Assembly: GCA_025999155.1 (NCBI GenBank) | Contig: AP026679.1 | Location: 227,996-291,995 of the forward strand | DNA: 64,000 nucleotides | Direction of reading: 5' to 3' | Origin: Candidatus Dojkabacteria bacterium | Lineage (GTDB): Bacteria > Patescibacteriota > Dojkabacteria > JAOAGR01 | In this document: in pieces, positions 2,459 through 48,690 of the stretch | Position numbering within the stretch: position 1 is the stretch's first letter | Layout: each line of letters starts with the position of its first letter | The notes under the pieces: generated by a model | What the model saw: the letters and a program-made list of their open reading frames with translations, nothing else | Told to the model about the DNA's origin: nothing | Database searches by the model: none | Program-made: the position numbers and the translations under genes

Positions 2459-3103
2459 TTAAATAGTACGAGTTGAAATAGCAAAAATGTATCTAAATGG
2501 CTTTGCTGGACTACCATTCGGACTGCTACATGTAAAAATCTTATTCACAACGTCATCAGCATCACAAGCTTCAAATAAAATATATATGACCGAGTTTTCT
2601 CCCTTTTGATCTTGTGATATACGTGCATCCAAATTTTGTACTTTTATATTTTGACTCACCAAGTACTGTGGATTAGAAGATGTATTGAGAACACACTGAT
2701 TTTGTGTTTGTTCTGGATTTCCTTGTAATCGAGCTAGTACTAACCTAGATTGGTTATCAATATGTATGGCAGAAGCTATAGGTGTCGGATTATTACCTCC
2801 ATCCCTTCTCACAATATATATACCCTGCGTAAGAATATTGGGACCCGAATAAGGATTGTTGTTTGAATTACATAAACCAACTTTTAGAGCATTACGTATA
2901 TCATTTCTGATTACACTAACAGCAGACTCTACTTCAACCAAGAAATCATTCCTTCTATCTAAAAAGTGAGCTAGACTAGCTAAGTTTACAACAGTACCAC
3001 TCATAACCACGGCTACAATACCAAACACCCCCAAAGATATAACTAATTCAATTAAAGACAAACCTTTTTTTGACTTTTTTCTACATTGATTTACTACACA
3101 CAT
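2459..3103 (-). CDS. prepilin-type N-terminal cleavage/methylation domain protein (minor pilin)
   Basis: KKG|LSLIELVISLGVFGIVAVV is the class III signal motif G-x-S-L-I-E followed by a hydrophobic helix. Confidence 0.6.
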   Translation of the reverse strand: MCVVNQCRKKSKKGLSLIELVISLGVFGIVAVVMSGTVVNLASLAHFLDRRNDFLVEVESAVSVIRNDIRNALKVGLCNSNNNPYSGPNILTQGIYIVRRDGGNNPTPIASAIHIDNQSRLVLARLQGNPEQTQNQCVLNTSSNPQYLVSQNIKVQNLDARISQDQKGENSVIYILFEACDADDVVNKIFTCSSPNGSPAKPFRYIFAISTRTI

Positions 3104-3831
3104 ACTGTACTTTTTACCATTTTTACGATTACTGGAGTCGAGTACTGTATTTCTGAAATATTTGGTACTCGATAACTTATTAATACGGTAAAGACCAAAA
3201 TATCTGCTCCCAATAGATTATTACGCTCGGCAGTCAACTGAATTGATAGCCCTAGGTCACTGTTTGTGTCGATAGCGAAGGCTCCCATACGATTCGCTTG
3301 AGGCACCGGATCAAAACGGAAATCTCCCCAAGGTGTATTACGAGGAGTCCCAGACGACGAAATAGATAAATTTATATTGAACGAAGGTGCATTATTGCTG
3401 CCAGAAGTAAATGTTGGTAATTGAGTTGATAAATAGACTGGGTTTGATGCCGATCCAGTAGGCACTACGCTGCAAATAGTATTCCAAACATCCCGACTCG
3501 CAAGAGTAGGAGGGTACGAATTTGGATCCCCACCTAGGACAATCCTTGATTTTGTAGTCTGTAAATCGATCTCTACTAATCGCAATTGTTCGACAATTAA
3601 ATTAGTCAATTGCATAGCGGAATCTGACATAAAATTTTTTTGAGATCTAGCAACTAGACGAGTTGTAAATACGGCAGATGTAGTTAAAGCAATAGCACTA
3701 ATTCCTATAGCTAGAACAACTTCAACGAGACTCAAGGCCTTTTTTTTAAGTAAACAGACCATTTGATTAAATAAAACTAATATACTAATTCGTAGACAAT
3801 TATCAAGTTTATCTTGGACAATATGTGCCAC
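3094..3831 (-). CDS. minor pilin-like protein (prepilin-type N-terminus)
   Basis: KKKALSLVEVVLAIGISAIALT is a hydrophobic N-terminal helix with E at +5. It overlaps the neighbouring genes by 10 and 23 nt, which suggests an operon. Confidence 0.5.
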   Translation of the reverse strand: MAHIVQDKLDNCLRISILVLFNQMVCLLKKKALSLVEVVLAIGISAIALTTSAVFTTRLVARSQKNFMSDSAMQLTNLIVEQLRLVEIDLQTTKSRIVLGGDPNSYPPTLASRDVWNTICSVVPTGSASNPVYLSTQLPTFTSGSNNAPSFNINLSISSSGTPRNTPWGDFRFDPVPQANRMGAFAIDTNSDLGLSIQLTAERNNLLGADILVFTVLISYRVPNISEIQYSTPVIVKMVKSTVCV

Positions 3832-6037: not shown

Positions 6038-6892
6038 TTAAAAGTAATTAACTTTAGTGTTCCCACTCTCCATACATAAAGTGAGATATTTACTTTCTAT
6101 ATTATATTCCAAAGGAATAAGATAATCTTCAAAAACCACCTTATTACAAGCTTCTACACGAATAAACATATATGATTCGCTGCCAAGATTGATAGCCATA
6201 GCATTAGTTTTATTTTCAGTGCCATTGTAGAAGTAAATTACAGAGGATGGATCGTCTGATAACAAAGTCTCTGATTTATCAACGTAAATCTCAGGAAATT
6301 TATCGTAATAAAACTCATACTCTTCAATATTATCCACTAAAAGCTTAAATATAAGTTCACGATCCCGATCTCTACCTTCTACAGTCGATTTTGAAGTGAA
6401 TCTGATATTCAAGTTTTTATCTCTTTCAAGAGCATTGTTACTTTCAGCTTTGTTACTTTGAGCGGAATCATTTGATTTACTTGCCGTATCCTGGGTAGTA
6501 GTAGAAGTAGTAATGACGGGAGTAAGTGATGGTGTGACAGGAGTACTTGAAATTATTTCTTGCGAGAATCTTGACACAGTAGGAGTAGGAGAGAATGCGG
6601 CAATGTTACTACCAATACTCCTACTATTGTAGACTACATTTTCCGGTAAAAAATCATTATTTAAACGTACTTTATATTGATAAATCCCAAGCACATTGTT
6701 ATCAGAAATTTCATTTAAAAGTGACGAATCAACATGATTATGTCTAAACAAACCAATAAAATCAAAAACTAATAACAAACAACACATTGAAAACAACAGA
6801 ATTGTAGTTGCCTCACTATTAAGAATTCCATGTAAATATTTAAAAATATTGGCTTTTATTTTATTAAGCATGCTTAAGTTAAATTTACACAC
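6038..6892 (-). CDS. hypothetical membrane-anchored protein with Thr/Ser/Pro-rich linker
   Basis: An N-terminal TM helix is followed by TPVTPSLTPVITTSTTTQDTASKS and a C-terminal domain of unknown function. Confidence 0.4.
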   Translation of the reverse strand: MCKFNLSMLNKIKANIFKYLHGILNSEATTILLFSMCCLLLVFDFIGLFRHNHVDSSLLNEISDNNVLGIYQYKVRLNNDFLPENVVYNSRSIGSNIAAFSPTPTVSRFSQEIISSTPVTPSLTPVITTSTTTQDTASKSNDSAQSNKAESNNALERDKNLNIRFTSKSTVEGRDRDRELIFKLLVDNIEEYEFYYDKFPEIYVDKSETLLSDDPSSVIYFYNGTENKTNAMAINLGSESYMFIRVEACNKVVFEDYLIPLEYNIESKYLTLCMESGNTKVNYF

Positions 6893-6904
6893 AACTTGTA
6901 AATT

Positions 6905-9544
6905 TTAAAAAATCGTACAAGCCACAACTTTATCATCCTCATCTAATCTAAAAACAATCACACCACTCGTAACTCTGCTTGACATTCTAATATCTTCTAA
7001 AGCAACCCGAATAGATTGGCCTTTATATGACATTAGTAAAAGCTCTTTTTTAGGATGGTCTATTACTCGAGCAACAGCAATTTTCCCAGTTTTAGAAGCT
7101 ATTTTATACCCCAACATCCCTTTTGTACCACGACCTTTGAGGGGAAACTCAGTCAAAGAAGTCATCTTCCCAAAACCCCTCTCAGAAACCACAAGTATTC
7201 TATCCTCTTTCTCTCGTATAACATCCATCATTACCACATTATCATCCTTCTCAAGTTTAATCCCTCTTACACCTTTTGATGATCTTCCTGTAGGAGATAC
7301 CGAAGTTTCTTTAAATCTTACCGTACGTGCATTTTCTGTCATTATGACGATTTCAGCATCACCATGTGTTGTTCTAACAAATATTAACTCATCACCACTT
7401 TCTAAATTGATTGCGATAAGACCGTTTCGGCGTATGTCTTTAAACTCCTCAATAGGTACTTTTTTAACAAGACCTTTTTTCGTAGCCATAAATAGGTATT
7501 TACTTGCTACAAAATCTTGACCAACCACAACTTCTCCTTCTTGGATCTGATCTTCATCCGCAACCTCATAAACCTCTCCAAAAGACCTAGATAAGACAGA
7601 AGTAATAATTTCACCTGGTTCTATGGAAATTAAATTGACCAGAGGCACACCTTTAGATTTTTTTTGATGTTCGGGAATATCAAAAGCTCGTAAAGCATAG
7701 ACCTTTCCTTTGTTTGAAAATAAAAGCAGCTCAGAATGCGTATCGCAATATACAAGATGTTCGACATAATCACCTTCCTTTGTAACCGTAGCTAACGATC
7801 CTTTACCACCTCTTGATTGAGCACGAAATTCATTCTCCTTAAGACGTTTTACATAGCCATATCTGGAAATTAAAATTAATACATTTTCTTTTTCGACAAG
7901 ATCCTCCGCGCTAAATTCTCCTGGATTAGACTTAATAATACGAGTTCTTCTTGGATCACTAAACTTTTCTTTTACCTCTAATAAATCTTTAACTATTAAA
8001 TCTTCAATTTTTGCTTGAGAATCTAATAAAGTTTTGAGATCATCTATTTTCTGAGAAACATCCGCATACTCTTCTTCTACCTTATACCTCTCCAAAGCAG
8101 CCAGTTTTCGCAATTGCATATCAAGAATAGCTTGCGCTTGTACATCAGAAAATCCAAATCTTGTAATCAAAGATTGCTTAGCATCGTCAGCGCTCTTTGA
8201 TGATCGAATTATACTAATTATCTCATCAATATGATCTAAAGCTACTTTTAAACCCTCCAAAATATGTATTCTTTGGATATACTGGTTCAAATCAAAAATA
8301 GCAGTGCGAATGATAATTTCATAACGATGTCGAATGAATTGTTCTAGAATTTCTCTCAATGACAAAGTCCTGGGCTCCTGATCTACTATAGCGACCATAT
8401 TGTAATTAAATGCACTCTGCATTTCTGTGTATTTGTACAATTTATTTAGCACTACTTGGGGAACAACACCTTTTTTCAGTTCAACAACTAATCTAATACC
8501 TTCTTTTGATGTACTTTCATCTCTAATGTCAGCAATACCATCAATTTTCCCATCTTTATAAAGTCCAAAAATTCTCTCAGCTAATTTCGCTTTGTTTACT
8601 TGATAAGGTAATTCTGTGATGACTATTTGTGTACGTCCCTTACCTAAATCCTCAATTTCTGCAACACCACGCATTAAGACACGGCCTCGGCCAGTTTCAT
8701 ACGCCGTCTTCAAATCATTAACGTTGTATACTTCTGCCCCAGTAGGAAAATCCGGCCCTTTTATGAATCTCATTAATTCATCACTAGAAACATCAGATTC
8801 AAAGTTAGGATAATGTATGTCACGTGTTGTAATGTCATAATCTACTGCATCATAATAATCTTTTGCGGCATGCTGAGAGTAATTGAATTGTAGACCTTTA
8901 GCCTTATTTCCTGATTTGATCATATACACAATGGCATCTATGACCTCGGATAGATTATGGGGGGGAATTTTGGTAGCTAGACCAACAGCAATACCATCAG
9001 CACCATTGATTATTAAGTTTGGGACGGCTACAGGCAATACTGTAGGCTCTAAATATTCACCAGTATAGTTTGGCCGGTAATCAATAGACTTCTTTTCAAT
9101 GTTTTCTAAAAATTTTGTTGTAATCTTAGCAAGTCTACATTCTGTATACCTTGGCGCTGCAGGACTATCTCCGTCAATAGATCCAAAATTTCCTTGTCCA
9201 TCAATTAAAAGGTAACGCATGACCCAGTCTTGGCCCATACGTACCAAAGCATCATATACAGCAGCATCACCGTGCGGATGATATTTTTTGAGTACTTCAC
9301 CTACAACACCCATGCATTTGGAATATTTGCCATCTGGCAAAATACCCTCTTTATACATGGCATACAAAATTCTTCTTTGGACTGGTTTGAGACCATCACG
9401 TACATCTGGAAGCGCCCTAGCAACAACAACACTCATTGCATAGTCGATATATGAGCGCTTCATTTCTTCCTCAATAGAAACATTTTTAACGATGCCAGCT
9501 ATAACGTTTTTTGTAAGATTATTTGTATCAGTCGGATTCTGCAT
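6905..9544 (-). CDS. gyrA: DNA gyrase subunit A
   Basis: It carries the hallmark N-terminus [30 protein letters not shown]. The active-site Tyr region and C-terminal beta-pinwheel repeats are present. Length is 879 aa. Confidence 0.95.
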
Positions 9545-9614: not shown

Positions 9615-10178
9615 CTAAACTTCAGGATATTTACCGCCATGTTTTAAAGCATACTCATCCAATTCTCTCGCTGTCATTATTAACTTAGGATCAATTACAC
9701 GATCTAGAAATATAATACCTTCGAAATGATCCAATTCGTGTAAAATAACATGACTCAAATATCCATTCGCATTTAATATCTGTTCATTACCAGCCAAGTC
9801 GTAGTATCGAATTTGGCAAGATTTTGATCGAGATACAGGACCAAATAAGCTATTTTCTCCCTTACCGACGGAAGCACAGCCTTCCCATTCAGTACTTAAC
9901 TCCTTTGATGCATAAACTAATTTTGGGTTAATTACTTCCATGTATTGCTTTTTACGCAAATCATAATAAACAAAAAGTCTAATATTTAGCCCTAATTGAG
10001 GAGCTGATAATCCAACTAAAGTAATGCCACCCTTCGAATGTTTCTTCGCAAGGTTTTTTAGAGAATCTATAATCAAGAGTAAATCCGGCTCATTTTTCCG
10101 CACATCTCTAGATTTTGCAGACAATTTCGGATCGGGGTATTGTAAAATTGTTAAGTATTTGAAATTTACATTCTTCAT
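9615..10178 (-). CDS. def: peptide deformylase
   Basis: Motifs GLSAPQLG, EGCAS and HELDH are all present. Confidence 0.9.
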   Translation of the reverse strand: MKNVNFKYLTILQYPDPKLSAKSRDVRKNEPDLLLIIDSLKNLAKKHSKGGITLVGLSAPQLGLNIRLFVYYDLRKKQYMEVINPKLVYASKELSTEWEGCASVGKGENSLFGPVSRSKSCQIRYYDLAGNEQILNANGYLSHVILHELDHFEGIIFLDRVIDPKLIMTARELDEYALKHGGKYPEV

Positions 10179-10395
10179 TGGATTTAGTTTACGTATAAAT
10201 TCAATGTTTGGGTGTTTTAAATTTATTTTGTTTTTTCTTTAATTAATTAATGATTCAAAAATACAGCAGCCATTACATTGAATAGATTGATTAATTTTAC
10301 ACTATACCGATCAAAGCCGTAAGGAACATTATACTATCCAGAAATCATTACCGCTGTATCTCTCCCAGACAAAAAAGGGCAAACCGTATACCATG

Positions 10396-10631
10396 ATAGA
10401 GGCAGAAACTCTGCTCCAAGAGCAACTCTCAGTACATCGAAATAATAACTAATTCGCATACTCGGCTGTCACACAAAGGTTATACCTACAGTCAAGGGAT
10501 GTTTTCGTCTTGGTGGGGAGTCTTACGATTCAGTTTACTCCTAAGTTAACCCAATCAAACGACTTATGAGAATGCCTCTACAAAAAACCAGAACATTCCT
10601 TAAACACAGCGCCTGGACGAATCTGTAGATT
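10396..10631. repeat. ~235-nt conserved non-coding element, copy 1 (candidate structured RNA or miniature mobile element)
   Basis: It is ~98% identical to 11653-11887. The surrounding intergenic DNA of the two modules is only ~70-80% identical. No ORF is conserved between the copies. It contains local hairpins (GCAG-aaact-CTGC) and a long-range TAGAGGC/GCCTCTA inverted pair. Confidence 0.7.
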
Positions 10632-10818
10632 AACATATACGGCCTCCAAACTATGATTATTATTTTATTGAAAAATCTTAGTCGTTAGAAATTTTGTGCA
10701 TAATTTAACCAATCTTTACAATATCATAAATTCAGCCGTATTCAGGCAATGAAACCTTCCAAAGCCATGCATGCTTGCATTATCATCTATTCTAAATATA
10801 TAATTAATTAGTCCTATA

Positions 10819-11565
10819 ATGAAACCAGAAAACGAACACATAAAAAGACAAGACGGAAGCACGAATAAACCATTAGAAAATCCACAAAACCGGAATCCAA
10901 ATCAGCCTTACGGAGTAGATACGGGAAGCCATCTAATAAGACCGCAAGGACCGGAAGAACAAGGTATACCAAAGAGTCAAGTAAGAATTATACAAAGCAT
11001 TATAGGATTGACACCATGGGGCAGATCCAGGTCACCAAAGAGACTACATCCATCAGCAGGAACAAACTCACAAATAGGTAACTCAGCAGAAAAAGCAGAG
11101 CCGGCTTGTTCACTGCAAGACACGTCTCTTTGGGAATGGGCAAAAGAGCCAAACAAGCACCCGTTACGGTTGTTAGGACTTTCTTTCATGGCGATGTTCA
11201 TGTCACCATTCAAACCCGGTATGAAAGTATTTGCCCTCGGATCACCAGAACCAAATCGTAGTGAATGGGGTGAATGGTTTAGAATAGAACTAGGAGGGGA
11301 AGTTCTAGACCGTCGGGGATGTTTTCCTGTGTCCAGATTCGTCACAGTTATGACAAAGCACGGAGAAACTCAGACTCTGTGGCCCGATATGTTGTTAATG
11401 CTAAATCTTGCAATGGCTAAACTTTATACACAAATTGGCGATCAGATAACTTTACCCGATGGAAACTATGGAAAAGTAGAAAGATTTGTATATGACCCTG
11501 ATTCGTACACCATCGCTGCTGTGGCCATCCAAGAAGACGGTGAGCTTGTATTAGTTCCTGTTTGA
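10819..11565 (+). CDS. tandem-paralog family protein 1: disordered N-terminal region plus PRC-barrel-like C-terminal domain
   Basis: The C-terminus LNLAMAKLYTQIGDQITLPDGNYGKVERFVYDPDSYTIAAVAIQEDGELVLVPV aligns with the C-termini of the 12198 and 13788 ORFs. The pattern G..V...DG..GkV.d...D...g.i..l.v...lvPv resembles a PRC barrel. GC content is higher than in the flanks. Confidence 0.55.
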   Translation: MKPENEHIKRQDGSTNKPLENPQNRNPNQPYGVDTGSHLIRPQGPEEQGIPKSQVRIIQSIIGLTPWGRSRSPKRLHPSAGTNSQIGNSAEKAEPACSLQDTSLWEWAKEPNKHPLRLLGLSFMAMFMSPFKPGMKVFALGSPEPNRSEWGEWFRIELGGEVLDRRGCFPVSRFVTVMTKHGETQTLWPDMLLMLNLAMAKLYTQIGDQITLPDGNYGKVERFVYDPDSYTIAAVAIQEDGELVLVPV

Positions 11566-11652
11566 AAGATTTAAAAGCGATTGTGTTATCAAGAACAAAG
11601 GCTATGTGATGTCGGAAGTTTTATACCTATTAGGGTCAACCTGTATGCTATT

Positions 11653-11887
11653 ATAGAGGCAGAAACTCTGCTCCAAGAGCAACTCTCAGTACATCGAAAT
11701 AATAACTAATTCGCATACTCGGCTGTCACACAAAGGTTATACCTACAGTCAAGGGATGTTTTCGTCTTGGTGGGGAGTCTTACGATTCAGTTTACTCCTA
11801 AGTTAACCCAATCAAACGACTTATGAGAATGCCTCTACAAAAACCAGAACATTCCTTAAACACAGCGCCAGGATGAATCCGTAGATT
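11653..11887. repeat. ~235-nt conserved non-coding element, copy 2
   Basis: It is a direct repeat of 10396-10631. Visible differences are one A deletion and three substitutions near the 3' end. It lies between paralog 1 and paralog 2. Confidence 0.7.
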
Positions 11888-12182
11888 GTTCAAGGATTGA
11901 TCGAATACTAAGCATATAATGCGACTCTTTTAAATCAGGGGTCTTATTGTTGACGCAACAAAAGTTAGCCAAGCTCAACAAGAAGCTCCAAAACAGACAC
12001 GGTGTACGGTCTCCAAACTATAATTATTATCTTATCGAAAAATCCTATTAATTAGAAATTTTGTGTATACGTGAACAAATTGTTACAAAATCATAAATTC
12101 TTCTGTATTGAGCCCGATAAACCTTCAAAAAACTTATAATAAATAACTAGAAATATTTGCTTGCATCACTCTGTTTTATAGT

Positions 12183-12200
12183 GTATAATCAGTCACTATG
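12183..12200 (+). promoter_or_regulatory. extended -10 (GTGTATAAT) 8 nt before the ATG; putative leaderless start of paralog 2
   Basis: gtgtataat-cagtcact-ATG has the same spacing as upstream of paralog 3 (13771-13790). No Shine-Dalgarno sequence is present. Confidence 0.4.
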
Positions 12201-13250
12201 GAAGGACCATACCAGCAGCCAATGGGGAATCCAAACGAAGGACCAGAAAGACCAGAAGGTCAAGAAGGGAAAACTCAAAACCCTACAAAAACACAAAAGG
12301 GTACAAGCAGTGCACTAAGGCGACAGCAACCAGATGCACAAAGAGGAATAAAAGGACAAAGAAGACCGAAACAAGGGACAGCCCCAGGACAAGGAATAGA
12401 AGTTCTACAAGGGCAGGCTCCAGACCCTATAGAAACGGGTACAAGCAGTGCACTAAGGCGACAGCAACCAGATGCACAAAGAGACATAGAAGGCCCAACT
12501 AACCCAACAGCACCCGAAGTACAAGAAACGGAGGTACAAGGGCCAAAAGGACGAGGCGGACCAAAAGGACAGAGACAAGAGGTACAAGGAATAGAAGGAC
12601 AAGGCGGAACAGAAGGATCCGGGTTATCGGTAGAACAAAGATCATCAGAAGAACCAAGGTCATCAGAAGGGCCGAGGCCATCAGAAGGAACAGGGGGATC
12701 AGAAGGAACAAACTTCCAAATAGGTCAGTCAGTACCTCCAGAAAGTGTTTGGGGAGCAAAACCTCCTCTGTCAGATCAGCCCAAACGATTGCGCCCGCTT
12801 TTTTATTGGGCAAATAGGTTCAGGGAGGGTAGCTTTTTGCAGCGACTGGAAGCTCAATTCAAAGCGTGGTTCGGGCAACCGTTTGTAAAAGGTTCTCGAA
12901 TCCTGGTACCACGATCAGGTAGTAAAAAAATAGAGGATTGGGAAGTGATAAGTTACAAAGGACTACGACTCTTCCCTTGGTCAAGAAGAGTCATACTTGC
13001 ACACCCAAATGGCCCAGAATACGGAACGAAGGAGATGCCTCTTGGCTCTTTGGTAAAATTTAATCTTGTGATGACTAAACTTTATGCTGAGCACATGAAT
13101 AAAGGGGTAACCTTACCAAATGGGGAAAAAGGGGTAGTAACCGGATATGTATATCGGCACGAGTCTGGAACCATCTATGCTTTGGTAAGGCGAGACCTTC
13201 GTTACCGTAGCGAAATCGTAGCAGTTGCTGTTCAAAGGGTTGAAATTTAA
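12198..13250 (+). CDS. tandem-paralog family protein 2: long Gly/Pro/Gln/Glu-rich low-complexity N-terminus plus PRC-barrel-like C-terminal domain
   Basis: The C-terminus KFNLVMTKLYAEHMNKGVTLPNGEKGVVTGYVYRHESGTIYALV is homologous to paralogs 1 and 3. The N-terminal ~200 aa are low complexity and include a perfect 47-nt internal direct repeat (12299-12345 and 12437-12483, encoding GTSSALRRQQPDAQR). Confidence 0.55.
   Translation: MEGPYQQPMGNPNEGPERPEGQEGKTQNPTKTQKGTSSALRRQQPDAQRGIKGQRRPKQGTAPGQGIEVLQGQAPDPIETGTSSALRRQQPDAQRDIEGPTNPTAPEVQETEVQGPKGRGGPKGQRQEVQGIEGQGGTEGSGLSVEQRSSEEPRSSEGPRPSEGTGGSEGTNFQIGQSVPPESVWGAKPPLSDQPKRLRPLFYWANRFREGSFLQRLEAQFKAWFGQPFVKGSRILVPRSGSKKIEDWEVISYKGLRLFPWSRRVILAHPNGPEYGTKEMPLGSLVKFNLVMTKLYAEHMNKGVTLPNGEKGVVTGYVYRHESGTIYALVRRDLRYRSEIVAVAVQRVEI
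12299..12483 (+). repeat. two perfect 47-nt direct repeats (12299-12345, 12437-12483) inside the paralog-2 coding region
   Basis: gggtacaagcagtgcactaaggcgacagcaaccagatgcacaaagag occurs twice, 138 nt apart and in frame. Confidence 0.85.
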
Positions 13251-13309
13251 AAACGCTTGTATTATTCAAAATAAAGGCTGTATAATGCTGGAAGTTCTAT
13301 ACCTACTTC

Positions 13310-13317
13310 GGGGGGGG
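13310..13317. repeat. homopolymeric G8 tract (intergenic, between paralog 2 and 3)
   Basis: cttcggggggggcttttg is read directly. Such a run is rare at this GC content. Confidence 0.9.
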
Positions 13318-13360
13318 CTTTTGTCTACCTCCCGCCGTTTTATTTATTAAAAAGTAATCC

Positions 13361-13432
13361 GCCCCTTCGAATATTTCTACGCAGGGTTTGCCAGAGAATC
13401 TATAATCAAGGGTAAATCCAGTTCATTCTGGG
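13361..13432 (-). pseudogene. duplicated fragment of the def 5' coding region (non-functional relic)
   Basis: aaagtaatccgccccttcgaatatttctacgcagggtttgccagagaatctataatcaagggtaaatcc is ~80% identical to 10016-10090, inside def residues ~25-55. Orientation is the same as the original. No ORF is intact. Confidence 0.5.
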
Positions 13433-13770
13433 GTCAACCCATATGCCATGATAAAAGCTAAACCTATTCTCAAAAAATAAGTCGCAGCACATCGAAATAA
13501 GGACTAAAGTCCACGCTTTTAAATCGAGGTATTATTGAAGCAGCAAAAGCAAACCAGGCTAAACAAGAAACTCCAGAACAAAAACTGTATACGTGGACAT
13601 CACACTACAATCATTATTTTATGCAAAAATCTTATTAATCAGGATTTTAGTGCATATCAGTTTACTGATTTTTCCAATATCATAAATCAGCTGTTTTGTC
13701 CAATTAAAGCTGAAGAGAAGATTCATAACGTGGTGACAACTAGGCATAGTTGCGTGGAATGATATCGATA

Positions 13771-13790
13771 GTGTATAATTAAATACTATG
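13771..13790 (+). promoter_or_regulatory. extended -10 (GTGTATAAT) 8 nt before the ATG; putative leaderless start of paralog 3
   Basis: agtgtataat-taaatact-ATG repeats the geometry seen at paralog 2. Confidence 0.4.
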
Positions 13791-14669
13791 TTAAATCCAG
13801 AAGGACAGCACCAATGGAGTGCCCGAAAAGAAGAAGGCAACCTTTCACGAGAAGATGGTGAACTAGGACGGGGCATCCAACAAAGTGGACCAGAGCAAAA
13901 TCAGAATTCACAGCCACACGGGGGCTTTCAGAGATGGGCAGAGAATATAATGAATGGGCTGCAAGGTGTTTGGGGTGAGTTGTTTGGCCAGCAACCACGG
14001 CGCCTGATAGAATTTTCACTCCCACCAGAATACAAAGAACTTTTATCTCTTTTATCTCTTTCTCGGCAGGACTACGCAAACCTTGCTCTATGGGCGCAGG
14101 AAAGGCGTAAAACAGAACAAAATCCGGTTAGTTTATTAAAATGTTTTGTGATGGAGAACATCTTAAATCAGCCGCCATTCCCCCGTGGTATGGTAGTAGT
14201 TTATCCGGCATCGCAATTGCCAGGTACTACTCATACTGGTGCTGAGATTGGTCCTTGGTTTGTATTAGGAACGGGGAAAGTTACAGGTAGGGGAGGAATT
14301 TTTCCTGGAATTTTTCCTGGTTTCGGACAAGTCAAAATTGAAAACTCAGGAAAGATCAAAATTATTGAAAGATTCTTAGGAATATTCTCAACTGGAATCT
14401 TAAACGAAAGCTTACAAATAGTGGTAACAAGACCGGAGCCTTATTCCTGGGAGTTGGTAAGGTTAAATCGAGAAATTCTTCATCTGTACGGTCAAATCGG
14501 CAATAAGGTAACGTTACTCGGTGGAATACGAATAACAGGTGAAGTGGTCGGATTTGCATATAATGATAGTACTAGAATCATCGCTGCTATAGTGGCCCTA
14601 GTTGGTGAAGGAAGAAGACCAGAAGAACAAAGGAGTATGGTATTAGTTCCTGTTAAAAGGCTAGGGTGA
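13788..14669 (+). CDS. tandem-paralog family protein 3: disordered N-terminus plus PRC-barrel-like C-terminal domain
   Basis: The C-terminus LNREILHLYGQIGNKVTLLGGIRITGEVVGFAYNDSTRIIAAIVALV...MVLVPVKRLG aligns with paralog 1, including the terminal LVLVPV. Confidence 0.55.
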   Translation: MLNPEGQHQWSARKEEGNLSREDGELGRGIQQSGPEQNQNSQPHGGFQRWAENIMNGLQGVWGELFGQQPRRLIEFSLPPEYKELLSLLSLSRQDYANLALWAQERRKTEQNPVSLLKCFVMENILNQPPFPRGMVVVYPASQLPGTTHTGAEIGPWFVLGTGKVTGRGGIFPGIFPGFGQVKIENSGKIKIIERFLGIFSTGILNESLQIVVTRPEPYSWELVRLNREILHLYGQIGNKVTLLGGIRITGEVVGFAYNDSTRIIAAIVALVGEGRRPEEQRSMVLVPVKRLG

Positions 14670-14759
14670 AAGAGTTTTAATGCATAATTTTCAAGGAATT
14701 GGAGCGCTTCAATGTTTCTTGTATTAAGATATACTACGATTGAGTTGTGTGGTGTAACT

Positions 14760-15359
14760 TTAGCTTCCGAGTTTGTCTTTTAGCTCCAAAAGAGCAGCTT
14801 CTACCTTACAATTACTTTGCAGTAGTTTTATAGCTCTTTCTAGTGCTAAAATAGACAAGTAGTTACTATCATGCATACTTAACAAATACTGATACTCTAA
14901 TAATCTATTGATCACTTGCTCTCTATCCAGATTCACAAGTTCATCAAACTCAATATTCACCACTTCTGGAGAAGATATAAAAGACAAAGCTCTGCCTTGA
15001 GAATCTCTACAAAATATTTCAACACAACGCGACCTTATAGTCGGCAATATTGCATTAATATTGCTAACAGTCATAAAGATTGTTTTGTTGGTATCTTCCA
15101 GGACTTTGAGCAAGATGTTTTGAGACACGGGTGAGATTAAATCAGCCTGGACAATCAGGTATATATTTAGAACTTCTGTCTGTACACTAGTAAGATTAAC
15201 TTTCCGGATGAAATCACGTATGGCATCAATCGAATATTTCCCATCATTAGGAGTCATAGTATGAAAGACAAGCTTTTTATCCTGATAATTTAATAATTTC
15301 TCAATCTCTGAACTCAAAAAAGCAATTTCATGCAATTGTGTAATCAGTAAATACTTCAT
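14760..15359 (-). CDS. DNA polymerase III delta-prime-like clamp-loader subunit, short form lacking the P-loop
   Basis: It has the ILPTIRSRC sensor-1/SRC motif typical of HolB and gamma/tau subunits. It is only 199 aa and has no Walker A. Confidence 0.5.
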   Translation of the reverse strand: MKYLLITQLHEIAFLSSEIEKLLNYQDKKLVFHTMTPNDGKYSIDAIRDFIRKVNLTSVQTEVLNIYLIVQADLISPVSQNILLKVLEDTNKTIFMTVSNINAILPTIRSRCVEIFCRDSQGRALSFISSPEVVNIEFDELVNLDREQVINRLLEYQYLLSMHDSNYLSILALERAIKLLQSNCKVEAALLELKDKLGS

Positions 15360-15417: not shown

Positions 15418-17205
15418 ATGCCCCAATCAACTCCAAAAAGCACGTTGGATGTCTTAATAAACCAAGGTGTTATTGACCTAGCAAAGGCCAACCAAGCTAA
15501 GCAGGAAAGTGTTTATCGTCACATCTCTCCCGAACAAATACTGATAGATAAAGGATGGGCAACCCCCGTAGATATAGCTAAAGCTCAATCCGTACTTTAC
15601 GGGATCCCATATATAAATATAACAGATCTAATTATTAGTAACGAACTAACTAATTTATACTCTGAATCAGAGGCATTACAGGCCAAAATATTACTGTTTG
15701 AAAAAAACGAAGATGTTTATAAGGCTGCAATGGTCAATCCTCTTGATATACAGACCATTCGCCTATTTGAAAGAAAAATCAATGGAAGATTACAAGTCTA
15801 TATAACTACGGAATCCGATCTGATCAATAAAATTAAAGCTGTATTCTCAAGTAATATCGGAAATCAAATCACAAATGTTGTCGAAAAAGCTATTTCAGAA
15901 TCCGAATATATAGACTTAACTTCCGTCAAAAGTGAAAAACTCGAAAACATAGAAAATATAGATATCAACAATACTCCTATTGCAAAAGTCATAAACATAA
16001 TTCTGGATACGGCTATCCAAGAAAAAGCATCCGATATACACATCGAACCATTCGAAAAACGCATGAGAGTGCGGTTTAGAATTCATGGTATATTAACTGA
16101 AAAATTAAGATTACCCATACAGATAGGACCGTCTCTCGTATCAAGAATAAAAATCCTTGGGAAGATGCCGATCGATGAGAAACGCAAACCTTTAGATGGA
16201 AGATTTCAAGTAAAATCAGGGGACCAAGAAATCGATTTACGTATATCATCTCTTCCGACTGTATTAGGTGAAAAGATGGTCATTCGTCTTTTACGTAAAG
16301 ATCTAGGTATCCATAGTCTTGAGGACACAGGAATGAGGGGGCAAGCACTTAAAACCTTTAAAGAAGGATTAAAATCTACATCTGGAATCATATTAGTGAC
16401 TGGTCCAACTGGATCAGGGAAAACTGTAACTATGGCAACTGCGATGTCATTATTAAACAAACCAGAAGTCAACATTGTTTCTGTTGAAGATCCAGTCGAA
16501 ATTCGAATTCCTGGCGTCAATCAAGTACAAGTCAATGTCGAAGCAGGGCTCACATTTGCCAATGCATTAAGATCCTTTTTACGACAGGACCCTGATATTA
16601 TCAGTGTTGGAGAAATACGTGATGCCGAAACTGCTGAGCTTGCGGCTCAGGCATCTCTAACAGGACATTTGGTTATTTCAACATTACACACAAATAGTGC
16701 AGCAGGGGCCTTGCCTCGGCTCTTAGATATGGGCATTGAACCGTATATCATAGCTTCATCTGTACACATATGTGCAGCGCAAAGGTTATGCCGTCGTATA
16801 TGTCCTCACTGTAAAGAAGTATACAATCCTAGTGAGGCAGAATTGATGGAACTCAGAAGAGTACTCAGCGAAACAAAAGAATTTAATGAACAAAAGGCTA
16901 TAGAGTTTCAGCAAAAATACATTTTAAAAAACGAAAATGTATCTCCAGCAGCACAACTTGTACTATTTCGGGGGAAAGGCTGTCCTAAATGTAATAATAC
17001 AGGATATTCTGGAAGAGTCGGTATATTTGAGGTTTTGAAAGTCACTGAGAAAATTTCGGCTCTCGTTATGCAACACGCATCCTCCGATGTCATCGAACGA
17101 GCAGCCACCGAAGATGGGATGATAAAAATGATACAAGACGGTTACTTTAAATGTATCGAGGGTATAACAACTATCGAGGAAGTTCAAAGGGTAATTCATT
17201 CTTAA
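15418..17205 (+). CDS. pilB: type IV pilus assembly ATPase PilB (GspE family)
   Basis: It has an N-terminal GSPII_E_N-like domain, Walker A GPTGSGKT, Asp and His boxes, and a tetracysteine CPHC...CPKC zinc motif. Confidence 0.9.
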   Translation: MPQSTPKSTLDVLINQGVIDLAKANQAKQESVYRHISPEQILIDKGWATPVDIAKAQSVLYGIPYINITDLIISNELTNLYSESEALQAKILLFEKNEDVYKAAMVNPLDIQTIRLFERKINGRLQVYITTESDLINKIKAVFSSNIGNQITNVVEKAISESEYIDLTSVKSEKLENIENIDINNTPIAKVINIILDTAIQEKASDIHIEPFEKRMRVRFRIHGILTEKLRLPIQIGPSLVSRIKILGKMPIDEKRKPLDGRFQVKSGDQEIDLRISSLPTVLGEKMVIRLLRKDLGIHSLEDTGMRGQALKTFKEGLKSTSGIILVTGPTGSGKTVTMATAMSLLNKPEVNIVSVEDPVEIRIPGVNQVQVNVEAGLTFANALRSFLRQDPDIISVGEIRDAETAELAAQASLTGHLVISTLHTNSAAGALPRLLDMGIEPYIIASSVHICAAQRLCRRICPHCKEVYNPSEAELMELRRVLSETKEFNEQKAIEFQQKYILKNENVSPAAQLVLFRGKGCPKCNNTGYSGRVGIFEVLKVTEKISALVMQHASSDVIERAATEDGMIKMIQDGYFKCIEGITTIEEVQRVIHS

Positions 17206-27076: not shown

Positions 27077-28144
27077 TCATTTTGATTTTTCTGATGGGTC
27101 ATGATCTGGTACATAAAGGGGGTGATATTTTTTATGAGTTTCCTCAGCAAATTTATCACTGGCGTGTACATATTTATCTGTAGTATGTAGACTCTCGTGT
27201 CCTAACAATATCTGAATAGCAGCCGGACTAGCACCACGTTCTACAAGGTAGGTAGCAAAGCCATGTCTAAATGAGTGAGCCGTTGTAGGTACTACAATAC
27301 CAAGCAACTTACGATAATGAGCAATTTTATCTTGAATATAATTAGTAGAAATACGTTTACCTTTAGTCCCATTTCTACCACCTCTTGTTGGTACAAATAA
27401 AGCCTCATTATTATCATCACCACGAGCTTTTAAATATTCTTTGATGTAATACATTGCTCTGGGAGTAATGTAGATAAAACGTTGTTTTTTGCCTTTACCC
27501 TGAATATAGATTTTTCCTTCATCATTAAGATCATGACGATTCAGCTTTACTAACTCTGAAATACGCAATCCACTTGAAAATAAGAGCTCTAAAATTGCCC
27601 GATTTCTCTTTGCGACAATAGGATTTTTTTCATATTCACTGGGGAACTCCATGATGCTTATCAAATCATCTAAATCAGCTACTTGAGATTTTTTTCTTTC
27701 CAGTTTTATTAATTTAACGCTATCTGATGTGATTGGCATTTTTTCAATAAGATCAAAGTCAACCAAATATTTCAAGTATGTTCTTAACGCAGAAAGCATA
27801 CGATTTACACTTTTTGAAGCCAAACTCTCATTTTTCTCACGGGACGAATGATGAACAGAAAATGATTCATAAATTGGCTCCAACAATCCTCGATCGTAAT
27901 CATCTAATTTATGCTTATTAGCATGCCACCATTTTACTATTCTTTCTAAATAATCAGGCGAACGTAAAAAACCCTTATAATAAGTAATCCATCGTTTTGA
28001 CAGTCCATTAAAATCGACATTATAAAGATTCATAAAAGCCTCAAATACAGTTAAATCACGACGATAATTATATACAGTCTCAAAGCTATAATTATTATTT
28101 TGTAGCTCTAACAAAAAATCTTCTTTATAAGGAAGCTGATACAT
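27077..28144 (-). CDS. tyrosine site-specific recombinase, XerC/XerD-like
   Basis: The N-terminus has a core-binding motif YNYRRDLTVF. The C-terminus ...HSFRHGFATYLVERGASPAAIQILLGHESLHTTDKYVH matches the R-H-R-Y catalytic box. Confidence 0.75.
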   Translation of the reverse strand: MYQLPYKEDFLLELQNNNYSFETVYNYRRDLTVFEAFMNLYNVDFNGLSKRWITYYKGFLRSPDYLERIVKWWHANKHKLDDYDRGLLEPIYESFSVHHSSREKNESLASKSVNRMLSALRTYLKYLVDFDLIEKMPITSDSVKLIKLERKKSQVADLDDLISIMEFPSEYEKNPIVAKRNRAILELLFSSGLRISELVKLNRHDLNDEGKIYIQGKGKKQRFIYITPRAMYYIKEYLKARGDDNNEALFVPTRGGRNGTKGKRISTNYIQDKIAHYRKLLGIVVPTTAHSFRHGFATYLVERGASPAAIQILLGHESLHTTDKYVHASDKFAEETHKKYHPLYVPDHDPSEKSK

Positions 28145-29510
28145 ATGAGTTTACCGCTTTTACTAATATAATAAATTTTGTTGTGTTAGACAAAGGAAAG
28201 GTTGAACAAGATACTAACAAACTCCATGGCAGCCCATGTCGATGCATGAGCAATATCTATCAGCGTTTGACTATATATATAATACTTGTCTACATATGCT
28301 TCGATTGTCAGGTAAAGTTGGAAGTCTACCGCAGGAGAAGGTATTACAAGGTATGGCAAATTTAGTGCATGACTATCTGTCGCAGAATCCACATGTATGG
28401 TATCAGCCACTTCCACGACAGAATCCTAATCCATGGGATCAACCCGATCAAGGATCTCATCCTAGTCAAGAATAGAACATGGAGAAGGTGAGGTGGGGTG
28501 GACATGACATTAAGTAGCAGAGAACTAAAAATAGTAGAGAGGGGATTATCGCTAGGTTTGTTTTGGCTCAGAGTGCGACTCTCGCTTAGTTCTGGATAGA
28601 CCATACCAATCTATAAAGCTATAGAGAAGATTTAAAAATTCTAGTTACGAATAAGTCGCAGAACTATATTGACTTGATTGGGGGAGGGAGCCTTCTGGGG
28701 TCTTCCTCGAAAAACCTCAAAATACATGTTATCACCAACCACTCACGCAGCTTTTCTAACCAAGAAAGACGCTCTTCTCTAGAGCACTCTATTTTCGGTT
28801 GTTTATCCATGCGCTATTATATTCCATGCAGACTTTTTTGTAAAGCACTCCTACTATCTATAATGCCAATACAGACAACATACATATGGATCCATACTCT
28901 AGGAAGGTGCCGAACTGATTTTTCTTTTTGTCATGTTTATTTATATCGTCTTTTGAGAGTTAATACTTCTCGTCAATTGTGTTTTTCCTACTGCTAGATA
29001 GTCATGTGAGAAATGTTGATCAAAACTACCACATTAGATTGTTCGTCAAAAACCAAACGGTAAAAATACCATTTTGGTATTACTCTGCTGGTAACTGAAT
29101 TTTGCAAGGTTTTAAGTTTGTTTAATTAGTTTGCATAATCCTACCAAAGTTTTGCTTGTTAGTTGTAATAATAGGGATTAATAAAAAATCGTTATGTTAT
29201 GTTCTATTTTCGTAAAAAACATTAATAATCAATCTTCATGTGAATTTTTAATATAAAACACTACAAGCAATTAATTATCAAATTTCACATTTCGTAGCAA
29301 AAGTATAATTTAATATGGTCATGCGTAAATGTAGAACCTATAATTCTGTTATGACAATATTGTAAACCTTACAGATATAAAAGTTGAAATATAATTTAGA
29401 TTCTAATATAAATATATATGTGTTAAGTACATATAGACCACAAAGGTTAAAAGTTTTTCTTATAGAAGTATATTCTTGACATATATAAATTATCAGTATA
29501 ATTAATTACT

Positions 29511-31049
29511 ATGTCAGCGACAGGAATACCTCATACAGTTCAAACACTAGAGACGACAACTGGATCTCCGGATCGATCCAATGGTGCGACCCCTGCAGGA
29601 AGCGCTTTGCGTCGTCCAGAAAGTCAGCTTATGTTAGGGATTTTAAACGATAGCAGAAAGCAGGCTGAAGAAGTATTAAGTGCGTTAAGTCTGGACAACC
29701 CGATAGTCAATCGTCTATTGAATGTATTGGAATCAGGATATATATCTTTACGACCACTACAGACTATTATGGAAAGACATTTGGAAGGTGGAAACTTGAT
29801 TGGGAAAGGACCACAGGTCATACGAACTGTCCTTGCAGGTATAACTGGGGATGTAATTCTGTACTCTGGTGCGAAGGAACTTCTGATTACAGAGGTAAAC
29901 AGAATAGGATCTATAGCTCAAACAACTTCGGAATTACAAAATCAAGTTGATGCCTTATTGCTAGAAGCTGGGTTACAAGTTCCAACAACAAAAGAAAAGA
30001 ATTTAGGCATACCAAAACTAGATGTTTATCGATATAACTTACTCGAATTGGTAGCCGAAAGATTAAGAGGCGTAGAGACGATGACGTATGGGGAAGTCCT
30101 TCTGAACAAAACAGAAGCAATTGCAGCCGCGGTTGGATCTGTCAAGGATGTGTACAGTAAGGGAATAGGACGTGTTGTAGAAGTTTATGAAAATGTTGCA
30201 AGTTCTATGCAGAATCTATATGGACACGTACCGCGAAAAAACTCTTTCTTTAGAGAATTATTAAGCAGGATAAGAAGTGTGTTTAAATCTAGGGAGGAAT
30301 TGATGCTTAACGCAATGCTTTACACTGTAGAGGGTGATATCAAGTCAATTCTGGATACAAATATCGGAGATGTTATTAGCAGCGGGATTCCGGAAAGTTT
30401 GTATGAACTTCATAGAAGAATTAAAGATATGGAAATAAGTGATATGACTCCAACTGAGGAAGAAATATATGGCAAAATGCTCATGGTACCGGGACCGAGT
30501 CGTCGGCTACCGATACCAAAGGTACTTCAGGATCTAGCTGAAAGTTTTGGCAAGTCCGTTGATAAGCCTGATCATAATCCTCTGCCTCTTCGTGACGGTT
30601 ACGGTATAATGCATAGGATAAGTCAACATTTTGATCACTTGAATCAATACGTGGAAGTATTGCGGAATGATGAGGATTTTGCTAATTCTACTAGAACATT
30701 TATCGAAAAATTTGTTCAAGCTTTATCATCAGATAACCAGAAAATTCAGAATATTATCGAGAAACTTGAATCAAGGATCTCACAATTAGAAGACGTTATA
30801 ACACTAGCCTCTAATAAAAAGAATGAAAAAGTGTTACAAAGAGCACAGGCGATGCATGCAAATTATTCGAGGCTTGTCGAAACACTTAGACAAGGAGTGA
30901 CATCACAAGACCAAAGCGAATCAAATATTAATATTGGAGATACTTTAGTAAACATACAAAAGAACATAGGACAAGTAAATAAAGAGCTTGGTAACTATGA
31001 CATGCATACGCAAGCAATATTACAAATAGAGGGTGTACGTGGAAGATAA
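29511..31049 (+). CDS. hypothetical alpha-helical protein (orphan, GC-richer than surroundings)
   Basis: It is a 512-aa ORF with no recognisable motif. An extremely AT-rich promoter region precedes it and a strong terminator follows. Confidence 0.5.
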   Translation: MSATGIPHTVQTLETTTGSPDRSNGATPAGSALRRPESQLMLGILNDSRKQAEEVLSALSLDNPIVNRLLNVLESGYISLRPLQTIMERHLEGGNLIGKGPQVIRTVLAGITGDVILYSGAKELLITEVNRIGSIAQTTSELQNQVDALLLEAGLQVPTTKEKNLGIPKLDVYRYNLLELVAERLRGVETMTYGEVLLNKTEAIAAAVGSVKDVYSKGIGRVVEVYENVASSMQNLYGHVPRKNSFFRELLSRIRSVFKSREELMLNAMLYTVEGDIKSILDTNIGDVISSGIPESLYELHRRIKDMEISDMTPTEEEIYGKMLMVPGPSRRLPIPKVLQDLAESFGKSVDKPDHNPLPLRDGYGIMHRISQHFDHLNQYVEVLRNDEDFANSTRTFIEKFVQALSSDNQKIQNIIEKLESRISQLEDVITLASNKKNEKVLQRAQAMHANYSRLVETLRQGVTSQDQSESNINIGDTLVNIQKNIGQVNKELGNYDMHTQAILQIEGVRGR

Positions 31050-36244: not shown

Positions 36245-36910
36245 TCAAGTGGTAATTTTATCCTTTATCTTGTCAAATTGCGACTTCGTAACAACTTTCT
36301 TAGTTAAAAGTTCGTCAATAGAATTATAAGGACGGCTAGATATAATTTTATCTGCCGTTACTTCCCCTACACCAGGTAAATCGATTAACTCTTTACGAGA
36401 AGCTGTATTAATGTTTATCAATCCTGATTGCGTATATACACCAAGTACTCCACCAGAGTCCTGAGGAGTATCACCTTGCGATGAATTAGTGTTAGGAGAT
36501 ACAGCAGCCATCAAATCCTCCACAGTAGGAATATATATTTTCATACCATCTGATATTTTTTGAGCCTTATTAATATTCTTGTCAAAATATTTTGCATCAA
36601 CACTCTCAGTAAGGCCCCCAGCTTTTTCTATCACTTCAATTACTCTTGCATTCTCTTGCATCTCATATACTCCAGGGTTTCTAACTGCACCACCTATATC
36701 TACTATTACAGTCTTTGCTACGTCTGAAAAAGCATTAGTTTCATCAGAAGATGCTATATTTGATTTTAAATCAGGCTTCTGATTCTGATTTAGGTTCGAA
36801 TTTTTTGATACCAAATAGAACCCGAAAGCCAGCAGTGCAATTATAAGCACTATATTTATTATCTTTATAAGTGATCGCTTCTGATCACTCGAAGTATTTA
36901 CAATGTCCAT
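36245..36910 (-). CDS. comEA: competence protein ComEA (membrane-anchored DNA receptor)
   Basis: N-terminal TM, an SLBB-like domain, and a C-terminal tandem HhH ININTASRKELIDLPGVGEVTADKII. Confidence 0.85.
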   Translation of the reverse strand: MDIVNTSSDQKRSLIKIINIVLIIALLAFGFYLVSKNSNLNQNQKPDLKSNIASSDETNAFSDVAKTVIVDIGGAVRNPGVYEMQENARVIEVIEKAGGLTESVDAKYFDKNINKAQKISDGMKIYIPTVEDLMAAVSPNTNSSQGDTPQDSGGVLGVYTQSGLININTASRKELIDLPGVGEVTADKIISSRPYNSIDELLTKKVVTKSQFDKIKDKITT

Positions 36911-47904: not shown

Positions 47905-47910
47905 TTGATT

Positions 47911-48669: not shown

Positions 48670-48690
48670 AACAAAATTATACTGTAATTC

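Follow-up and report, generated by a model that had tools for sequence, protein, structure and literature searches.

A tandem array of three paralogous genes, designated g1, g2, and g3, occupies the slot between def and a holB-like gene in the metagenome-assembled genome (~738 kb; source habitat, hot spring) of a Candidatus Dojkabacteria bacterium. The array was analyzed in a 64,000-nucleotide stretch of contig AP026679.1, referred to as the window. The g1–g3 genes (source protein names KatS3mg084_0210 to _0212) have the sequence hallmarks of real protein-coding genes with their own predicted promoters and, within the ~20 kb compared with a related genome, evolve much faster than all other genes. 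Their substitution patterns indicate that the coding sequences, unlike the promoters and flanks, are under positive diversifying selection for amino-acid change. We conclude with moderate confidence that g1–g3 form a small set of variant binding proteins on which diversifying selection acts, which would operate at a conflict interface and not in housekeeping.

The def/holB-like slot

All three genes are intact open reading frames (ORFs) on the forward strand: g1 (10819–11565, 248 residues), g2 (12198–13250, 350 residues), and g3 (13788–14669, 293 residues). These positions are exactly those given in the sequence-only reading that had singled out the array. The left boundary of the slot is def (peptide deformylase; 9615–10178, reverse strand) and the right boundary is the holB-like gene (DNA polymerase III δ′; 14760–15359, reverse strand). 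Both were identified from Pfam annotations at the syntenic locus on JGI contig L002, with Pep_deformylase on the L002 ortholog of def and DNA_pol3_delta2 on the holB-like orthologs. Non-coding stretches of 640, 632, and 537 nucleotides precede g1, g2, and g3, respectively. The closest gene of the mobile-element type is a tyrosine recombinase (27077–28144) ~12 kb from the array, which agrees with the earlier statement that none lies nearby.

The paralogy proposed for the three genes is real. The g1 and g2 proteins are 31% identical over 188 residues (E 3e-12) and g1 and g3 are 27.5% identical over 189 residues (E 3e-9); the g2–g3 relation is visible solely through g1 or a profile. The conserved C-terminal part had been put at ~60 residues, but the alignable region is actually ~150–200 residues long and runs from g1 residue 98 onward.

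Amino-acid replacements dominate allelic divergence

A 1.1-kb Logan contig (L003) spans window positions 10588–11682 and carries an allele of g1. The two alleles differ by 46 substitutions in the 747-nucleotide ORF, distributed 25/18/3 over codon positions 1, 2, and 3. There are 43 nonsynonymous and 3 synonymous changes, giving a nonsynonymous rate (dN) of 0.080, a synonymous rate (dS) of 0.018, and dN/dS = 4.4. Simulation with the observed mutation spectrum gave an expectation of 12.4 ± 2.9 synonymous changes versus the 3 observed (P = 2.5e-4). A comparison of codon positions 1 and 2 with position 3 plus the flanks was also significant (Fisher P = 3e-8), the flanks differing at 6 positions in 348 nucleotides (1.7%).

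The g2 and g3 genes were compared with their orthologs on L002 against a background of 17 other orthologous pairs from the same two loci. The 5′ part of g2 is 81% identical at the amino-acid level, with 4 synonymous and 38 nonsynonymous changes (dN 0.111, dS 0.035, dN/dS 3.15). The 3′ part is 66% identical, with 12.2 synonymous and 56.8 nonsynonymous changes (dN 0.22, dS 0.14, dN/dS 1.5). The g3 proteins are 57% identical, with 44.7 synonymous and 162.3 nonsynonymous changes (dN 0.33, dS 0.29, dN/dS 1.13) and substitutions split 75/75/43 by codon position. In the background set, 16 of 17 pairs are 96–99.8% identical with dN of 0.001–0.018, and dS is 0.006–0.17 in 16 of the 17. The dN/dS ratio is 0.03–0.29 in all background pairs except one (ORF 3094–3831), where the value of 1.28 comes from only 5 substitutions. 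The dN of g2 and g3 (0.11–0.33) exceeds the dS of 16 of the 17 neighboring genes, and relaxed constraint alone is therefore insufficient to account for it.

The exception in dN is the ORF at 6038–6892 (reverse strand; 284 residues, no Pfam domain), which adjoins gyrA and is the sole other fast-diverging gene in the comparison with L002 (78% amino-acid identity, dN 0.122, dS 0.45, dN/dS 0.27). This ORF may represent a divergent allele or have been imported by recombination.

Programmed hypermutation, either of the type produced by diversity-generating retroelements (DGRs) or transcription-coupled, could generate variation that is nearly confined to codon positions 1 and 2 and falls largely within the gene body, the transcribed region of a leaderless gene. 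DGRs are common in bacteria of the Candidate Phyla Radiation (CPR). Their variable proteins resemble g1–g3 in combining near-purely nonsynonymous variation in a coding segment with a conserved scaffold and conserved flanks, but they depend on a reverse transcriptase, a template repeat, and adenine specificity, none of which was found in the window. Pfam scans of 30 ORFs of at least 150 residues in the 64-kb window, together with the L002 gene table, detected no reverse transcriptase, and when all of the window was searched with g1–g3 (blastn, word size 7), no second copy that could act as a template emerged. The spectrum is not adenine-specific; in 18 of the 46 changes neither allele has an adenine, and none of the 109 third-position adenines changed. 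If the process were base-specific but blind to codons, 22.9 changes would be expected at third positions versus the 3 observed (P = 3e-7). The changes cover the whole 747-nucleotide gene instead of a short variable repeat, and the predicted fold is neither C-type lectin nor Ig-like. With the search for a reverse transcriptase and a template covering the 64-kb window, DGR-type mutagenesis of g1–g3 is unlikely on these grounds, and it is extremely improbable that any programmed hypermutation generates the variation.

Reading frames, composition, and tail repeats

The g1–g3 genes are the GC-richest ORFs in the window (0.43–0.47 versus 0.344 ± 0.029 for the 47 other ORFs), and to this extent the reported GC enrichment of the array holds. 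The excess is located in codon positions 1 and 2. GC content at the third position (GC3) is 0.31–0.33 versus 0.27 ± 0.04, merely 1.0–1.7 standard deviations over the mean. The enrichment therefore reflects a Gly/Pro/Glu/Gln/Arg-rich composition and not GC-rich codon choice, and the accompanying claim of GC-richer codon usage is mostly explained by amino-acid composition.

Neutral drift of decaying or spurious ORFs in a GC-rich non-coding or pseudogene island would account for the g3 dN/dS near 1, for a frameshift in the L002 copy of g2, and for the absence of homologs outside the clade. The behavior of the reading frames speaks against it. The family ORFs are intact in four independent assemblies, and their 248–350 codons stay open in spite of 20–40% divergence. 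Relative to the orthologs, 13 of 14 indels across g1, g2, and g3 are multiples of 3 (8 of 8 in g3; 138, 48, 18, and 6 nucleotides in g2; one of 9 nucleotides in g1), the sole out-of-frame event being a 1-nucleotide deletion in the L002 copy of g2. All three genes show GC1>GC2>GC3, the order that genuine genes display where the genome is AT-rich. The family alignment conserves hydrophobic core positions, and a fold is predicted. Drift could not attain a g2/g3 dN above the dS of the neighbors or a g1 dN of 0.08 that exceeds both its own dS (0.018) and the flank divergence (1.7%), and the synonymous deficit in g1 is significant. Neutral decay is thus very unlikely. The sequence-only reading had held that a lack of both fold and homologs would mark the ORFs as spurious; a predicted fold and orthologs both exist.

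The L002 ortholog of g2 (L002:9546–10399) carries its 1-nucleotide deletion at the position equivalent to window 12882, which splits the gene into ORFs of 161 and 132 residues with the downstream frame fully open. The g2 tail (12295–12498) changes length by whole repeat units, the L002 deletions there being 138, 48, and 18 nucleotides. This strain-to-strain change in sequence length indicates repeat slippage in the g2 tail. Where g2 has SSEEPRSSEGPRPSEG, the family member on contig L007 has 7 copies of EGPRSP.

Hydrophilic tails and two predicted β-barrels

Each protein combines a hydrophilic N-terminal part with a folded C-terminal part. The tails are 97 (g1), 191 (g2), and 91 (g3) residues long with grand average of hydropathy values of −0.96 to −1.38, shorter overall than the 150–250 residues reported for them. 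The tails had also been called unrelated, which is true in part; an MxxPEG start is common to them, as is a GTNxQIG motif that is 86% identical over 35 nucleotides. The Gly/Pro/Gln/Glu-rich composition reported for them holds, and the tails are hydrophilic and poorly modeled (g3 residues 1–54 have an AlphaFold2 predicted local distance difference test score, pLDDT, of 29–40). In g1, residues 1–97 are a basic hydrophilic tail and residues 98–248 are predicted to fold into two barrels, each preceded by a helix, and make up an acidic part with an isoelectric point (pI) of 5.0. In g2, residues 1–191 are a Gly/Gln/Pro/Glu-rich tail with internal repeats (12295–12360 and 12433–12498, 91% identical) and residues 192–350 are a basic folded domain (pI 10.2). 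The g3 protein is modeled as a low-confidence region (1–54), a helical region (46–125), barrel 1 (136–194), a helix (219–234), and barrel 2 (240–291). The net charges of the folded domains are −5, +13, and +7 for g1, g2, and g3, respectively.

The AlphaFold2 model of the C-terminal 151 residues of g1, built from a 5-sequence alignment, starts with a helix and a four-strand barrel, which a long helix joins to a second barrel (pLDDT 72 overall and 83–87 in the second barrel; predicted template modeling score 0.65). The best-ranked model of full-length g3 has the same helix-barrel-helix-barrel order with a mean pLDDT of 58.9; the other four models scored 32–38. Each modeled protein has two barrels of ~50–60 residues with bent antiparallel strands, as expected of small barrels. 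The models thus assign g1–g3 to the tandem SH3/Tudor-like small β-barrel fold class. The top Foldseek matches are the 53BP1 tandem Tudor domain (E 2.4e-3), and CarD and the UvrD/PcrA C-terminal Tudor domains are further structural neighbors.

The conserved part had been read as a small β domain of the PRC-barrel type. The models agree with a small β domain, and the PRC-barrel call finds no support in sequence or structure. At E ≤ 1, Pfam-A gave no match for g1 or g2 and only GP52 (E 0.11) for g3, and no PRC-barrel protein appeared in the Foldseek lists, so the RimM C terminus and the reaction-center H subunit are not the nearest neighbors. The PRC-barrel family (Pfam PF05239) does belong to the same broad class of small β-barrels, and its strand-turn-strand pattern, G..V.LP.G..G.V, looks similar.

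Scans of g1–g3 against Pfam, PHROGs, NCBIfam, and PADLOC returned nothing above chance, the only entries having E values of 0.11 (Pfam GP52, g3) and 0.18, far below curated cut-offs. No PADLOC-DB 2.0 defense hidden Markov model (HMM) matched g1–g3 at E ≤ 1. None of the named Tudor, SH3, KOW, or CarD families showed homology to g1–g3 in sequence, the best PDB profile match having an E value of 1.3, and no invariant aromatic cluster is evident among the 12–21 invariant columns of the alignment. A phage origin was considered and set aside: BFVD gave no structural match at E ≤ 0.001, and tblastn against 50,697 phage records found nothing.

A role as nucleoid, condensate, or scaffold proteins had been suggested for g1–g3; as a housekeeping function, it would join a disordered tail to a Tudor-like domain that binds nucleic acid or RNA polymerase. 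The hydrophilic tails of low model confidence, the basic folded domains of g2 and g3, and the resemblance to CarD and the UvrD/PcrA C-terminal Tudor domains, which bind RNA polymerase, fit this idea. It is disfavored by dN/dS of 1.1–4.4, with 57–83% amino-acid identity between genomes whose other proteins are 96–99.8% identical, by a copy number of 0–3 that includes absence from a relative with a 79% identical holB-like protein, and by charge flips (−5/+13/+7) that leave the g1 folded domain acidic. No sequence match to any nucleic-acid-binding family was found for g1–g3. We regard a housekeeping scaffold as quite improbable.

Export signals and the pilus/competence neighborhood

No hydrophobic N terminus, signal peptide, lipobox, prepilin motif, or transmembrane segment is present in g1–g3. 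The highest 19-residue Kyte-Doolittle hydropathy is 0.65–1.33, with the peak inside the C-terminal barrel. The earlier statement that signal peptides are lacking therefore stands: the N termini are hydrophilic and no window exceeds 1.33 on this scale. Since no export signal was detected, g1–g3 are taken to be cytoplasmic.

Surface or host-contact proteins that leave the cell by non-classical export would place the array with the type IV pilus and competence genes and make the tail an envelope spacer. The slot does lie in a pilus/competence neighborhood; the L002 table lists T2SSE, MshEN, T2SSF, N_methyl (weak), and DprA, and further pilin-like genes (N_methyl, weak) appear on the gyrA side in the L007 table. 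The tails contain Pro/Gly/Glu/Ser repeats, such as those of the L007 member, and exposed proteins are typically under diversifying selection. Set against these points are the missing export, lipoprotein, prepilin, and membrane signals, the opposite-strand holB-like gene that lies between the array and the pilus operon, and the separate promoters of g1–g3. A surface function is accordingly doubtful.

Family distribution and copy number

Homologs were sought with a word-indexed profile search of 5.8 billion clusters and an exhaustive HMMER search of 1.84 billion representatives, together covering ~15 billion predicted proteins. Six members were returned: g1–g3, the g1 allele P0004 on L003, and the g2-like and g3-like proteins of L002. 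A seventh, on L007, was found through the synteny of the holB-like gene, which shows that sequence search recovers the family poorly. All known members lie in the single def/holB-like slot. Three large repeat proteins (Flg_new, WD40/nSTAND) that reached E ~1e-5 in the exhaustive profile search were dismissed as repeat-driven artefacts after a Pfam scan. The distribution identifies g1–g3 as an orphan family that, as far as these searches reach, is confined to one narrow Dojkabacteria lineage.

Copy number in the slot is 3 in the window, 2 in L002, 1 in L007, and 0 in L005/L006. The gyrA-def region of L002 is 96% identical to the window at the nucleotide level, and its slot contains g2 and g3, no g1, and one hybrid copy of repeat A, the long direct repeat that flanks g1. 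This state fits the loss of g1, or alternatively its gain, through recombination between A repeats. L007, whose holB-like protein is 71% identical, has one member that is 35% identical to g2 and carries the sevenfold EGPRSP repeat in its tail. L005 and L006, with a 79% identical holB-like protein, have no family member and carry unrelated, fragmented PP2C-type genes in the slot. With 0–3 copies among relatives, the slot is therefore a variable hotspot.

The L005 and L006 slots (L005:1025–4685 and L006:3581–6256) contain PP2C-type phosphatase ORFs of 142, 123, 168, and 288 residues, three of them overlapping in a row, and ~975 nucleotides of non-coding DNA. The 288-residue protein was tested as a hidden family member and rejected (hhalign probability 0.07), and six-frame translations gave no HMM match. 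Contig L004 stops 33 nucleotides past the holB-like gene. Searches with the module patterns (two against metagenome contigs, one against genome contigs) and with the holB-like protein against genome contigs gave no match; L002 fits the first pattern yet was not among the results, and the metagenome collection apparently does not include its metagenome.

Upstream modules and promoters

Repeat A occurs as a direct repeat at 10377–10631 (255 nucleotides) and 11634–11887, both on the forward strand. The two copies pair around g1 and flank a 1257-bp unit; they are 96% identical overall and 97% identical over the first 210 nucleotides. A partial third copy, comprising the first 77 nucleotides at 74% identity, lies on the forward strand upstream of g3 (13431–13507).

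Module B, ~180 nucleotides long, is present in three forward-strand copies of 73–79% identity, one ahead of each gene, and its 34-nucleotide core pattern occurs 3 times in the window versus 0 expected. The claim of a duplicated promoter-plus-gene module is thereby upheld. Copy 1 (10638–10818) has a −35 element TTGCAT (10775–10780), an 18-nucleotide spacer, and a −10 element TATAAT (10799–10804) ending 14 nucleotides before the g1 ATG. Copy 2 (12005–12197) has TTGCAT (12161–12166), a 17-nucleotide spacer, and TATAAT (12184–12189) ending 8 nucleotides before the g2 ATG. Copy 3 (13601–13787) has TTGCGT (13750–13755), an 18-nucleotide spacer, and TATAAT (13774–13779) 8 nucleotides before the g3 ATG. 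The consensus of the predicted promoters is TTGCRT, a 17–18-nucleotide spacer, and TATAAT. An extended −10 promoter is not claimed; the TG abuts TATAAT directly, one base off the canonical position. No Shine-Dalgarno (SD) motif precedes g1–g3, and the spacing of the g2 promoter predicts a leaderless mRNA.

Two further fragments lie on the forward strand upstream of g3. One is a copy of the def 5′ end (13351–13427; 77 nucleotides, 84% identical to 10018–10094), which is also present in L002, and the other is a copy of the 5′ coding region of a pilB-like gene (13520–13570; 51 nucleotides, 78% identical to 15458–15508). Both are scars of segmental duplication, the def copy marking the event that made the g3 unit, and the first ~160 nucleotides of def were caught up in an old duplication. 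The earlier proposal that the family is lineage-specific and expands as promoter-plus-gene units are duplicated in tandem is supported.

The stretch 13432–13780 shares 84% identity with the sequence that precedes the one family member on L007. Purifying selection on the upstream region had been drawn from this identity and was withdrawn, since a recent recombination tract could explain it. Compared with L007, gyrA (6905–9544; L007:12344–15617) is 97% identical at the protein level with dS 0.156, def (9615–10178) is intermediate with dS 0.395, and most other genes have dS of 0.4–1.9 and 67–91% amino-acid identity. This pattern looks like a recent recombination or transfer tract over gyrA, def, and the adjacent intergenic region.

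A structured non-coding RNA in repeat A or the upstream modules was rejected. Rfam gave no match at the gathering score in the array, the only entry being mir-84 at E 8.5. Repeat A has no significant fold on either strand (z-scores −0.87 and −0.05), and the upstream modules likewise gave no signal on either strand, RNAalifold returning −17 and −16 kcal/mol over 382 columns with an unfavorable covariation term.

An inverted repeat encloses the −10 element and reaches the start codon of g2 (12178–12199, ATAGTG...CACTAT) and g3 (13768–13789, ATAGT...ACTAT). It is kept in L002 and partly in L007 (ATAGTG...GCTAT), and could be an operator site. Most window ORFs of at least 150 residues also have no SD motif, and several genes, for example 36245–36910, 47911–48669, and 6038–6892, have a −10-like hexamer 6–9 nucleotides before the start codon. 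These observations suggest that leaderless or SD-independent initiation is widespread in the genome, and leaderless expression therefore looks like the genome norm.

Other features of the window

In 28145–31049, a 1.36-kb stretch with no ORF longer than 107 residues lies behind the tyrosine recombinase and is followed by a 512-residue orphan ORF (29511–31049) with no Pfam match and an N terminus that looks polar by eye. The promoter context of this ORF, TTGACA-17-TATAAT-TAATTACT-ATG, nearly matches the contexts of g2 and g3. Module B recurs in weak, partial form at 28073–28176, and a short ORF at 28236–28475 has a Gln/Asn/Pro-rich end resembling the g1 tail.

Two adjacent, slightly overlapping ORFs of 301 residues (58010–58915 and 58900–59805, reverse strand) have no Pfam match and may be another local paralog pair. 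The dnaB, dnaA, and dnaG genes and the RNase P RNA (50454–50796) are clustered at 44519–50796, and the window may therefore lie near the replication origin.

Discussion

The preferred explanation for the array joins its architecture to its mode of evolution. The array grew as a unit comprising the intergenic region next to def, a promoter, and a gene was duplicated in tandem, and the 255-nucleotide direct repeats around g1 allow that gene to be lost or gained by homologous recombination. In each protein, a flexible N-terminal tail rich in Gly/Pro/Gln/Glu is predicted to lead through a helical linker into two SH3/Tudor-like barrels, which form a putative binding scaffold. Selection on amino-acid replacements would drive the coding sequences, and the three paralogs may be variants that recognize a fast-changing partner, which could come from a phage, be a toxin of a competitor, or belong to the host cell. 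The differing charges of the folded domains count toward different specificities of the paralogs. Bacterial genes seldom reach a whole-gene dN/dS above 3, and such values point to direct molecular conflict.

Several observations weigh against this explanation. The selection signal comes from one allele pair per gene. For g1 the contig is short, and the neutral benchmark consists of just 348 flanking nucleotides and 246 third positions; 5 of the 6 flank differences are bunched in 41 nucleotides of repeat A. Predicted loops contain no excess of the changes that separate the g1 alleles (13/58 versus 20/93, P = 1), and these changes outline no discrete binding surface. The dS of g3 is also high (0.29); besides recent adaptive substitution, its divergence may thus owe something to saturation or to the acquisition of an old, divergent allele. 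The frameshift in the L002 copy of g2 may reflect early pseudogenization, a recent frameshift, or an assembly error. The structural models were of moderate confidence and built on very shallow alignments (5–6 sequences).

A specific version of the repertoire explanation is an immunity-type array, in which g1–g3 are cytoplasmic neutralizers of competitors' polymorphic toxins or of phage proteins and form a tandem "poly-immunity" set. Poly-immunity loci of polymorphic toxin systems are tandem arrays of fast-evolving paralogs without export signals and with strain-variable copy number. The g1–g3 array matches this description in its tandem paralogs without export signals, its very fast evolution with dN/dS above 1, its presence or absence among strains, and the differing electrostatics of its paralogs, features that fit immunity arrays and are not specific to them. 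Unlike poly-immunity loci, the array has no known immunity domain, the Pfam, NCBIfam, and PADLOC scans having given no match above chance, and no toxin gene or remnant lies in the slot, which is flanked by def and the holB-like gene. The tails of 90–190 residues are also unusually long for immunity proteins. We judge the immunity-array version to be unlikely.

The fold class is already known, and g1–g3 are a rapidly diversifying, lineage-specific tandem gene family that, by sequence, falls in no named family. The modeled g1–g3 resemble the 53BP1 tandem Tudor domain, CarD, the UvrD/PcrA C termini, KOW, and PWWP in having two successive, helix-joined barrels of ~50–60 residues, each a bent antiparallel sheet. 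The template modeling score to these Tudor/SH3-like families is only ~0.3 because the inter-domain orientation differs, and they have no sequence similarity to g1–g3. The Tudor/SH3-like families are conserved housekeeping or chromatin proteins, whereas g1–g3 are orphans with dN/dS above 1.

A hypervariable PTD-repeat gene of a Gracilibacterium is likewise one locus where variation is locally extreme while the rest of the CPR genome is near-clonal, and it breaks assemblies. The g1–g3 array also ends Logan contigs, either inside repeat A (L003) or 33 nucleotides past the holB-like gene. The Gracilibacterium gene varies in a 9-mer repeat with 17 synonymous and 0 nonsynonymous changes, and its product is predicted to be extracellular with an N-terminal transmembrane domain (Sieber et al. 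2019, PMC6851277). In contrast, the variation in the array is nonsynonymous and gene-wide, and the proteins have no export signal.

The g1–g3 array devotes ~4.5 kb (0.6%) of a ~738-kb genome to three paralogs and their long upstream modules, and CPR bacteria have streamlined genomes. The broader reading is that selection, at a whole-gene dN/dS of 3–4, has rapidly re-surfaced a conserved tandem Tudor/SH3-like scaffold, which flanking repeats allow to be multiplied or deleted, into a hitherto unrecognized sort of innate-immunity-like or host/phage-recognition repertoire in an ultra-small episymbiont; this is possible but on the improbable side. If true, a 0.74-Mb genome would hold a recognition repertoire whose g1–g3 match no known defense family. 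If the partner is found, g1–g3 would provide a handle on the dealings of an uncultivated episymbiont with phages, competitors, or its host.

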